Shown here piece by piece: positions 218 through 63,745 of a DNA stretch of 64,000 nt (within the stretch, counting starts at the first letter, position 1; each line of letters begins with the position of its first letter). The position numbers and the translations under genes were made by a program. Source of the DNA: Octopus vulgaris (lineage: Eukaryota); contig OX597840.1 of assembly GCA_951406725.2 (NCBI GenBank), forward strand, positions 16,492,001-16,556,000. Reading direction: 5' to 3'. The notes under the pieces are model-generated. The model did no database searches. It saw only the letters and a list, made by a program, of their open reading frames with translations, and had not been told where the DNA came from.

Positions 218-337
218 CTAACACAGCTTGCTGTTCATTCCCATGCCAGAACAATGGGATATGTTCACCCACTGGGCGAAATGGTTATATTTGCAATTGC
301 CAGAACAGTGGTTACTATGGCACCAATTGTGAATACG
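218..337 (+). CDS. PTGS: Cyclooxygenase (PTGS/COX)-like gene, exon equivalent to PTGS2 exon 2 (EGF-like domain)
   Basis: T-rich tract + ctag acceptor (AG 216-217), donor gtaagt at 338. Translates (A)NTACCSFPCQNNGICSPTGRNGYICNCQNSGYYGTNCEY, like COX NPCCS.PCQNRG.C......Y.CDCTRTG.YG.NC. Phase 1-1, 120 nt. Confidence 0.93.
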
Positions 338-860
338 GTAAGTACACATGACTCGGACAAGAATTGACTCTGTATCCATTTCTATTGTTGATAAAAATAT
401 TGTCCATTGTGATCCACCAGGCCTTTATACCCAATCAAACATATTCTCTCTGTGACCATTCATCTTCTTGCATTTCAAGGACTGCAGTGTCCAATGAAAT
501 CTTTGTATTTTTTATTTAAGGACAGCAGAGTATGATTTGAGGGAGGTTTGACTACCATTTCTGGAAGGTCAAGTGACCTTGCAGTGGCTCTTCCATGATG
601 AGTGCTTGATAATGTCAGTAATATAGCCAAGTGGTTATAGTACCTGACTGCAGTTCAAAAGATCTTAGGTTCAAATCAACTGCAGACATCTTGGGGAGAA
701 TATTGCCTGAGTTCAACAAATTGTTCACTGGAACTGGAGCCAGATCTGATAAGGATTTTTACCAAAGATTGTGGTGCTTTATCTACAAGAACATTTGTCT
801 AATGAATTCTCAGGTATATATAAGTTCTGAGCTTATAAGGGCCTGTCAGAAAGGAACAAT

Positions 861-1245
861 GGCGGCGAGCTGGCAGAAATGCTTAGCGGTATTTCGTCTG
901 TCGTTACGTTGTGAGTTCAAATTCCGCCAAGGTTGACTTTGCCTTTCATCCTTTCAGGGTCAATAAATTAAGTACCAGTTATGCACTGGGGTCGATATAA
1001 TTGACTTAATACCTATGTCTTTCCTTGTTTGTCCCCTCTATGTTTAACCCCTTGTGGGTAATAAAGAAATAGGTATTTCGTCTGCCATTACGTTCTGAGT
1101 TCAAATTCCGCCGAGGTTGACTTTGCCTTTCATCCGTTCGGGGTCGATTAAATAAGTACCAGTTATGCACTGGGGTTGATATAATCGACTTGATCTATTT
1201 GTCTGTCCCCTCTATGTGTAGCCCCTTGTGGGAAATAAAGAAATA
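861..1245 (+). mobile_element. tRNA-derived SINE (family B, Meta-domain-like) with tandemly duplicated body
   Basis: Head GGCGGCGAGCTGGCAGAA...GAGTTCAAATTCC (B-box); core GCCTTTCATCC.TTC.GGGTC.ATAAA present twice; ~13-bp TSD agaaag(g/a)aacaat at 848-860 and 1246-1258. Other copies at 39478-39710, 45798-46027, 50140-50310. Confidence 0.8.
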
Positions 1246-1279
1246 AGAAAGAAACAATTGGAACTGTAACCAACAGTGA

Positions 1280-1637
1280 ACATTGGATATGTCTTATGTG
1301 TGATTGTGTTCTGTTGTCAAAAGCAGGAAATGTGAATTATATGAAGTCACATGAAAATCAAACTGCCCAGGTGGGTAATTATCTTGAACCCCACCCCCAG
1401 ATGCCTCTTATGACCTGTGTCATATATCACAAAACTTGTAAGACAATATCTGGGCTAAAAAGTCATATGCTAATTCACAAAAACATTCTTTCAGAATCAG
1501 ATTCCAAAGGGCAAAGATGTGAAAGAAACTTGAATAATATCTGTTGCTTGTGTTTTAAGCCCTGTCAGACAGCAGCTGGTCTTAAAAGTCATCAATGGAT
1601 TGTGAGGTGTGACAGGGTGTGTGTGGGGGGGTGTTGA
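1280..1637 (+). mobile_element. Degenerate ORF with three C2H2-like zinc fingers, probably a LINE (RTE-type) C-terminus
   Basis: CLMC...KAG.VNYMKSH, C.KTCKTISGLKSHMLIH and CCLCFKPCQTAAGLKSH motifs; long non-TGEKP linkers; degenerate. Confidence 0.45.
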
Positions 1638-62200: not shown

Positions 62201-62549
62201 AGTCAAATGACTGAAACAAGTAAAAGAGTAAAAGAGTAATTACAAATAATGGACTGCACATGAATTTTAACAGCAAAACCTTATATGGACCCACAAGGGA
62301 AATACGGACTCTCAAGTGCAATATGAACCCTGGTTGAGAATCACTGGTGTACACAAACTTGTTAAATATAAATATACACAGCTTAATTTTAATTATCACC
62401 AACCTGCTTGGCAACCATGTAGTTTTGAGTTCAGTTCTACTGCACAGCACCTTAGGCAAGTTGTCTCCAACTAATACCCGCAGGGCAACCAAGTGAATTT
62501 GGTAGATGGCAACTGTGTGTATACATACACACACAAATAATATATATAC

Positions 62550-63490
62550 ATCCTAGATGTGAATGGATTTATAATAGAAGAGTAAAGCTACTTAGTGGCT
62601 CCATCATTGATTTACATAAACAGCAGTTAAATACTGGAGTTGATTCAATCTCTTAACTAGAAAATTAAATTTCATGGTTATTCCATTTATGATATTAAAT
62701 ACCTAGCAAAGAATAATTTTTTTTTCTGCAAGACACTTTGCCTCAATAAACTCCACATAGCTTGACAAAGTATAGTTCCATTAATCCTTTCGTTACTGTA
62801 TTTATTTTGAGATGCTCTGTGTTTCTTTCAGTTACTTTAAATATAACAAAGAATTTAGTAAAATAACTGAGTTCTCATTCAGTTAGTGTTAGGAGCATAA
62901 ATTGTGACTAAAGTTTGGTGGAAGATTTTAATTCAAATCTTATGAAAACAAGACATTTGTACTCAGAGCCAGAGCCAGTTTCAGCCGGGTTGGTAATGAA
63001 AGGGTCAAATAGTTCCAAAAATGACATTACCCAACAAAAGATAGACTGATCTTTAAAACTACTTTCTACAGTTAAAGGTAATACAATTTTGAGTTGATAT
63101 ATCTGATTTCAGCAGTAAAAGGTTAATATTTCTGTAGAATATCCTAGATGTAAATGGATTTATAAAAGATTATGACTACCTAGTGGTTCCCCTTTTCAGG
63201 TTTTGTTTTCTTTATTAGCAGTATTTAAATACTGGAGTTGATTTAACTCTTTAACTGCAAAAATAAATTTTAAGGTCATTCAAGTAATGATGTTAAATAT
63301 TTACCAAAATTAGAATTGGTATTTTCTGCAAGTTACATTGCCTCACTAAACTTGACATATATCAACAAAAAATAATTCCAAACATGACATTTCTTCAACA
63401 AAAGATAGACTGGTATGCAGAACATCTTTCTGCAGTTAAGGGCAATGAAATTTTGAGTGGCTGTATCTGATTTCTAGTGCAAAAGGGTTA
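62550..63490. repeat. Diverged ~350-bp tandem duplication, first unit interrupted by a piggyBac MITE (62781-63008)
   Basis: ATCCTAGATGT.AATGGATTTATAA...AAATACTGGAGTTGATT...CAACAAAAGATAGACTG...AAAAGG(G)TTAA at 62550 and 63141. Confidence 0.75.
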
Positions 63491-63600
63491 AGTTAACGAT
63501 TCTCAAGACTGGTATAATGTTAATTAATCAAAGCTCCTCATCATTGTTGTAGTGACAGAAAGCTTGCTAATGGTCTGCTTTGATTGTGTTGTTGCAACAG

Positions 63601-63745
63601 GTCACTCACCATAACCATGGTCCTGCAACTATACTCCATGCCAGACAAGCCCTACTCCATGCCAGGACATTACGACTCCAGTCCTACAACAATTACCTCA
63701 GGCATTTCAAGTTGAAAACTCCAAAGACGTTTATTGAGCTGACAG
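63601..63745 (+). CDS. PTGS: COX-like gene, exon equivalent to PTGS2 exon 9 (gene continues beyond the window)
   Basis: aacag acceptor, gtaagc donor. VTHHNHGPATILHARQALLHARTLRLQSYNNYLRHFKLKTPKTFIELTG vs COX ...R.M.YQSFNEYRKRF.LKPY.SFEELTG. 145 nt, phase 0-1. Confidence 0.93.

Follow-up and report, generated by a model that had tools for sequence, protein, structure and literature searches.

What becomes of a cyclooxygenase (COX) gene that has lost its catalytic tyrosine while an intact COX gene stands beside it? The question is raised by a 64,000-nt stretch of Octopus vulgaris DNA (contig OX597840.1, positions 16,492,001 to 16,556,000; hereafter the window), which carries eight exons of a COX-like gene with leucine at the position of Tyr385 (residue positions are given in ovine COX-1 numbering). 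COX is a sequence homodimer acting as an allosteric and catalytic pair, a picture that rests on engineered mutants, and a natural, selected copy with Tyr385 and Gly533 both changed, next to an intact enzyme, would be a ready test of the COX fold without oxygenase chemistry. The gene in the window (the copy) was an intact, old tandem duplicate of the octopus cyclooxygenase gene, and its residues predict with near certainty that it has no cyclooxygenase activity. It is real, selected and mis-annotated, with its mechanism lying among several candidates.

The Tyr385-less copy, its neighbour and its history

The eight window exons all had AG/GT ends and gave 1311 nt, or 437 codons, in a frame open throughout, confirming the coordinates, splice ends and frame of the original prediction. 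Exons 1 and 10, proposed there as a check, were located outside the window, giving ten coding exons, 593 aa, a single terminal stop and intron phases of 1,1,1,1,0,0,1,0,1 (Table 1). A protein search with exon 8 gave one match among 23 candidates, 100% identical and named "prostaglandin G/H synthase 1-like [Octopus sinensis]". The spliced 593-aa frame equalled the O. sinensis record at 590 of 591 aligned residues and the O. bimaculoides record at 572 of 593. The protein cluster of the copy had four members, two of them O. bimaculoides isoforms and the others from O. sinensis and O. vulgaris, with RefSeq entries in two Octopus species. In the O. vulgaris records the two COX genes are named "isoform X2" and "X4" under accessions that are almost adjacent; the names may have been transferred or may go back to one locus model common to both.

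In a genome-wide Pfam scan a second COX-like exon appeared 56 kb upstream. The Tyr385 paralogue for which the original prediction had suggested a search was present: a canonical COX gene of 612 aa, 611 of them identical to the O. vulgaris prostaglandin G/H synthase (PGHS) record, with Tyr385, Gln203, Gly533 and the usual motifs. It ended 21,022 nt upstream of the copy's ATG on the same strand. Intron phases were identical in the two genes, and exons 2, 6, 7, 8 and 9 were equal in length, including those of 84, 247 and 287 nt that had been predicted and that presumably also match human PTGS2; exons 3, 4 and 5 of the copy were shorter by 3, 15 and 18 nt. A genome search with exon 8 gave two matches among eight candidates scored, the copy and the canonical gene, and these were the only COX loci found. 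Both apparently lie on one contig in three Octopus assemblies. The shared strand and phases, with a Tyr385 gene next door, indicated that prostaglandin synthesis has its own gene and that the window holds a tandem duplicate, which is only 37% identical to canonical octopus COX.

Conservation of 90% or more across 16 canonical COX rows defined 154 columns as family-conserved. The copy was changed at 51 of them, against 0–13 in the 14 canonical rows that are near full length (the two partial ones are left out). Y385L, Q203D, N382K, N375E, R376F, G354R and D229A were all seen, as predicted, together with G533S, Y504I, R150Q, N144D, P528L, L359Y, I377M, S541M and Gln at 523; position 354 is His in canonical octopus COX. 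The DSPP loop was lost, WKPSTFGG replaced and the loop after Thr212 shortened. Arg120, Tyr348, Tyr355, His207 and His388 were kept, in agreement with the prediction, as were Glu524, Ser530, His386, Trp387, Lys211, Thr212, all ten cysteines of the five disulfides, a hydrophobic leader and a C-terminal SEF. Glycosylation sequons remained only at 227 and 379.

We take N170 of shrimp COX to be the equivalent of the lost Asn144 site. Removal of the N170 glycan abolished shrimp COX activity (PMC8062024). The Tyr385 radical starts catalysis, and cyclooxygenase activity is absent from Y385F homodimers and abolished by G533A (PMC12756642). Three separate lesions, of the Tyr385 radical, of Gly533 at the end of the substrate groove and of the Asn144 glycosylation site, therefore predict the loss of activity, and with catalytic Tyr385 gone the copy likely makes no prostaglandins. 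Among features of an active cyclooxygenase it did retain Ser530 and the Arg120/Tyr355/Glu524 triad, which gates the COX channel (PMC12756642). By descent the copy is a COX, but it does not qualify as an active cyclooxygenase.

A 1319-nt contig from sequencing run X16 (kind not on record) had exons 8 and 9 abutting with the 4.3-kb intron skipped, and differed from the genome by a single synonymous change (ATT to ATC at 59035). A contig from run X1 showed no differences over 215 nt including the Leu385 codon. Both contigs read Leu, so sequencing error does not explain the missing Tyr. A contig from X14, which bears another organism code, aligned without gaps over 262 nt and showed 24 differences. 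An exon search of sequencing runs found the exon or part of it in 19 of 24 rows from nine studies, their kinds guessed or unknown; no RNA holder was listed. Cephalopods recode their RNA heavily, and A-to-G edits were checked for this reason: none would restore Tyr385 (TTA), Gln203, Asn382, Asn375 or Arg376. Three of the 33 sites examined (150, 349 and 533) were restorable in principle by A-to-I editing, codon 533 in exon 10 (AGC) to Gly and the other two likewise to canonical residues.

Between this genome and O. bimaculoides the copy differed at 21 of 593 residues and the canonical enzyme at 23 of 612 (Fisher p 0.88); 23/612 held both for the O. sinensis/O. bimaculoides pair and for the canonical gene of this genome. 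Compared with simulated neutral change, the 21 differences were the more conservative (P 0.015 and 0.026); they sat in less conserved columns (P 0.007), none of them in the 154 family-conserved columns. All 51 changed and 103 kept family columns were identical in both species, which for the 51 alone is unsurprising given only 21 differences. Judged by these comparisons, the copy is now as constrained as the canonical enzyme. The original prediction had read purifying selection from a frame left open across long introns filled with transposable elements; that is not evidence alone, and it is the cross-species comparison that provides it. Together with the spliced X16 contig, this constraint supports the predicted spliced and selected COX-family gene expected to lack cyclooxygenase activity.

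Four-fold sites differed between the paralogues at 58 of 89 (65%). In a 16-row tree, which omits nine of 25 rows (five long or divergent ones among them), the copy's stem carried 1.72 changes per site and its tips 0.005 and 0.035. This tree placed the copy as sister to all coleoid COXs (65/89), a position not established and subject to long-branch attraction. Duplication after the octopus/decapodiform split was rejected, since grouping with octopus COX alone gave p-AU 0.015, with the same long-branch caveat; in a quick-mode tree of 25 rows the copy was unplaced. A burst of change followed by freezing is, on these branch lengths, the pattern of a new job. No relative above 40% identity was found outside the copy's own cluster among 34 matches, and of the 150 best representatives, in which cephalopod sampling was thin, none exceeded 45%; a search for shorter relatives gave 0 of 885 candidates, which is weak evidence.

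Candidate roles of the copy

Exon 8 alone matched solved COX-2 with an E-value of 5e-17, and the whole copy matched human COX-2 by phmmer (E 7e-113) and PF03098 at 118 bits. An AlphaFold model built from 18 rows had a confident catalytic core and a predicted local distance difference test (pLDDT) score of 67.6; its best Foldseek match was COX-2 (5F19, E 8.8e-39), and PGHS clusters ranked top in an ESM Atlas search. On lists of heme-pocket, channel and interface residues, the copy kept 7/15 (47%), 11/24 (46%) and 12/33 (36%) of the conserved positions, respectively, against 10/10 for the disulfides and 158/277 (57%) overall; the canonical neighbour kept 15, 22 and 30. The interface alone was significantly low (Fisher p 0.014 against other conserved columns).

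Position 373 lies near the dimer two-fold axis, where Y373C would suit a homodimer. Residues 126/127 of one COX subunit form cross-links with 543/541 of its partner (PMC12756642); in the copy, both sets of positions fall in loops that have been deleted or replaced. E319-Q330, E364, F367 and Q372 of the interface were kept. Rewriting of both crosstalk surfaces would be more in keeping with insulation from the canonical enzyme than with a partnership.

We tentatively favour, at somewhat less than even confidence, a COX pseudoenzyme that binds fatty acids, is non-catalytic and acts apart from the canonical enzyme. A tandem duplication, recorded in the same strand and phases, was followed by a burst of change in which the radical tyrosines were lost, Gly533 was exchanged and both crosstalk loops of the dimer were rewritten, and then by the renewed strong constraint seen between two species. 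The protein would likely fold COX-like on the membrane in the lumen of the endoplasmic reticulum (ER), where SEF may retain it. The channel mouth is intact and the far end altered, and fatty acids would likely be bound through the kept Arg120/Tyr355/Glu524 gate. The copy would pair with itself, not with COX.

Several observations count against this picture. The channel as a class was no better kept than average (p 0.28), so the choice of the gate triad is partly post hoc, and Gln523, G354R, L359Y and I377M line the same channel. Model pLDDT fell below 50 at 110-141 and 199-210, exactly the rebuilt loops. His207, His386, His388, Lys211 and Thr212 fit heme binding as well. No depth on exon 8 was seen in the 6% of reads examined from RNA run X21, so expression would be low or restricted. 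Full-length proteins of the copy came from two Octopus lineages only, and the O. bimaculoides RefSeq isoform P0002 skips in-frame exon 4, which removes Arg120, the 120-129 region and Cys159.

It is possible, but doubtful, that the copy still holds heme and is an enzyme of peroxidase type, or one that uses hydroperoxides, devoid of oxygenase activity. Radical leakage would then be stopped by the loss of Tyr385 and Tyr504, and Asp203 with the histidines gained at 295, 298 and 447 would be a rebuilt distal site. Distal His207 and proximal His388 are both present, with His386, Trp387, Lys211 and Thr212; His207 is absent from all ten other Tyr385-less rows aligned (three of which are one Macrobrachium cluster). 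The site also gains Lys382, and several polar changes fall close together at heme-contact positions. Peroxidase activity is spared by G533A (PMC12756642). Set against this, distal Gln203, present in every canonical row covering it, is Asp (GAC) in the copy, fewer than half of the conserved heme-pocket residues are kept, and PXDNL, in which the equivalent Gln is replaced together with the heme-linking Asp, has no peroxidase activity (PMC8533639). With 103 of 154 conserved columns kept overall, two kept histidines are unremarkable. The peroxidase or isomerase job first suggested for this gene is thus weakened by Q203D and the partly kept pocket.

We consider it unlikely that the copy encodes an allosteric subunit which would serve canonical COX as a permanent E-allo partner (or dominant inhibitor) and tune prostaglandin output through its bound fatty acid. 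A COX-1/COX-2-Y385F heterodimer has reportedly been proposed in knock-in mice. The natural changes fall at both positions mutated to build E-allo subunits, 385 and 533. More than 90% of Vmax remains in Y385F/Native and nearly all activity in G533A/Native, and E-allo requires Arg120 (PMC12756642). The apparently shared contig in three assemblies and the kept part of the interface also suit a partner. In the copy, however, the 120-129 and 541-552 segments are rewritten (DSPP lost, S541M, WKPSTFGG replaced), including the 120-129 and 541-543 crosstalk loops expected intact in E-allo, while the canonical partner keeps 30 of 33 interface residues; low identity to that partner argues the same way. 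A prediction of the heterodimer (canonical 31-535 with copy 38-532), run without alignments, scored 0.00 and is evidence neither way. The heterodimer role in the original prediction is weakened accordingly by the two rewritten surfaces.

It is improbable that the copy is a structural or protein-binding protein of the ER or cell surface that reuses the fold with neither lipid nor heme ligand. Heme pocket, channel and interface are each kept below the overall average and all disulfides stay, but Arg120, Tyr355, Glu524, Ser530 and both heme histidines survive 1.7 changes per site. A decaying pseudogene or assembly artefact, for which the empty X21 run and the lack of any close relative found outside Octopus might speak, is scarcely credible in view of the open frame, the recurrence of the protein in independent Octopus records, a constraint matching that on the canonical gene, the spliced contig and the great age given by the four-fold sites.

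Beside the fatty-acid-binding pseudoenzyme, a more far-reaching outcome is conceivable though not expected: octopus may have split the roles of the COX dimer between two genes, one a dedicated allosteric subunit, or rebuilt the heme site into an Asp/His-rich, hydroperoxide-using oxylipin enzyme. No natural precedent for either within the COX family turned up in the literature searched.

Exon map and surroundings

As shown in Table 1, the exons of the copy span the window and its flanks. A TTTGCAG acceptor-like site about 17 nt before exon 1 suggests an upstream non-coding exon. The introns carried an element of the long interspersed nuclear element (LINE) type, DDE_3 transposase remnants and very high-copy interspersed repeats; in every one of the four runs, depth on the repeats between exons 8 and 9 lay between hundreds and hundreds of thousands. 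Other animal heme-peroxidase loci were many in the genome (C20, C9, C2, C4 and C6), clustered on C20.

Table 1. Positions of the copy's exons and of other features (plain numbers are window positions)
Feature	Position	Strand	Remarks
Exon 1	G000:C27:16488487-16488568	+	ATG, leader; 3.5 kb before window; found by mapping O. sinensis record back
Exon 2	218..337	+	120 nt; EGF-like domain and cysteines; matches P0001 and canonical exon 2 length
Exon 3	3774..3914	+	141 nt (canonical 144); membrane-binding helices; W98G, W100G, two extra Cys
Exon 4	22262..22390	+	129 nt (canonical 144); Arg120 (22264-22266) and CPTP kept; DSPP loop and Asn144 sequon lost
Exon 5	24832..24989	+	158 nt (canonical 176); Asp at Gln203 position (24936-24938); His207 kept (24948-24950); shortened loop after Thr212
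Exon 6	43798..43881	+	84 nt; V228S, D229A, new NHT sequon
Exon 7	55318..55564	+	247 nt; WLRQHN; new His at COX positions 295 and 298
Exon 8	59001..59287	+	287 nt; Tyr348, Tyr355, His386-Trp387-His388 kept; N375E, R376F, Y373C, N382K
Leu codon TTA at catalytic Tyr385 position	59141..59143	+	genome sequence; same letters in contigs of X16 and X1; Leu in two species
Exon 9	63601..63745	+	145 nt; V447H; joined to exon 8 in one X16 contig
Exon 10	G000:C27:16558843-16559231	+	2.8 kb after window; Ser530, Glu524 kept; Gln523, Ser533, Ile504; WKPSTFGG replaced; SEF-stop
Canonical COX gene	G000:C27:16414235-16467465		ten exons
Acceptor-like site	G000:C27:16488470		TTTGCAG
LINE-type element	28600-31715	+	intron 5; stop-free endonuclease (330 aa) and reverse transcriptase (727 aa) stretches in different frames
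DDE_3 transposase remnant	48223-48762	+	
DDE_3 transposase remnant	10317-10889	+	under Pfam cut-off
Very high-copy interspersed repeat	61857-62333		intron between exons 8 and 9
Very high-copy interspersed repeat	62652-63128		intron between exons 8 and 9
Heme-peroxidase match	C4:112615604-112617127		one long single stretch

Comparison with known systems

Literature searches, with subscription journals mostly outside them, found no paper on the copy, and the available portions of PMC13218726, PMC6372189 and PMC6669704 make no mention of it. Literature on a Q203V mutant was not found, and effects of Gln203 mutants form no part of our reading. The branch had been predicted to be undescribed; no paper describes it among those searched, but the protein is already in RefSeq for two Octopus species and Tyr385-less COX-likes occur elsewhere. 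Databases label the copy prostaglandin synthase 1. The matter bears on the use of non-steroidal anti-inflammatory drugs (NSAIDs) in cephalopods, since the copy keeps Arg120, Tyr355 and Ser530; in its available portion, a cephalopod NSAID study aligned only the canonical octopus COX (PMC9953149).

At least ten other Tyr385-less COX-like representatives were found, in the prawn Macrobrachium, the sipunculan Aspidosiphon and eight insects (P0068, P0069, P0070, P0080/P0217, P0082/P0218, P0084, P0088 and P0112). In ten aligned rows, three from the Macrobrachium cluster, Arg120 and His207 were absent from all, whereas the octopus copy keeps both; a W..STFGG-like loop was present in 9/9 rows covering it and is replaced in the octopus copy. 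Macrobrachium and Aspidosiphon stood apart from the copy in the quick tree, in which insects were not included. The protein of the Macrobrachium cluster (P0068, P0212 and P0214), conserved between two prawn species and lacking Tyr385 and His207, is likely an independent COX pseudoenzyme. Judged from these records, loss of Tyr385 is recurrent in COX-likes and not unique to octopus, and a wider, little-studied class is suggested.

The copy resembles COX-1, COX-2 and canonical octopus COX (QHX41555, XP_014768109) in its three-domain fold, five disulfides, Arg120/Tyr355/Glu524, Ser530 and His207/His388, and the octopus enzyme also in its ten exons and their phases. Unlike canonical COX it has no Tyr385, Gly533, Gln203, Tyr504 or Asn144 sequon, and the DSPP and WKPSTFGG loops are gone. 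PXDNL (peroxidasin-like), a pseudo-peroxidase, is likewise a paralogue of an active enzyme in the same superfamily, kept and expressed with its distal Gln replaced (PMC8533639), but it belongs to the peroxidasin branch, and its inactivity was measured whereas that of the copy is predicted. The nearest engineered counterparts are the Y385F/Native and G533A/Native PGHS-2 heterodimers (E-allo/E-cat), in which the same two positions are disabled and the gate is intact (PMC12756642). Those are point mutants with a native interface, whereas the crosstalk loops of the octopus copy are rewritten and its pairing is hypothetical.

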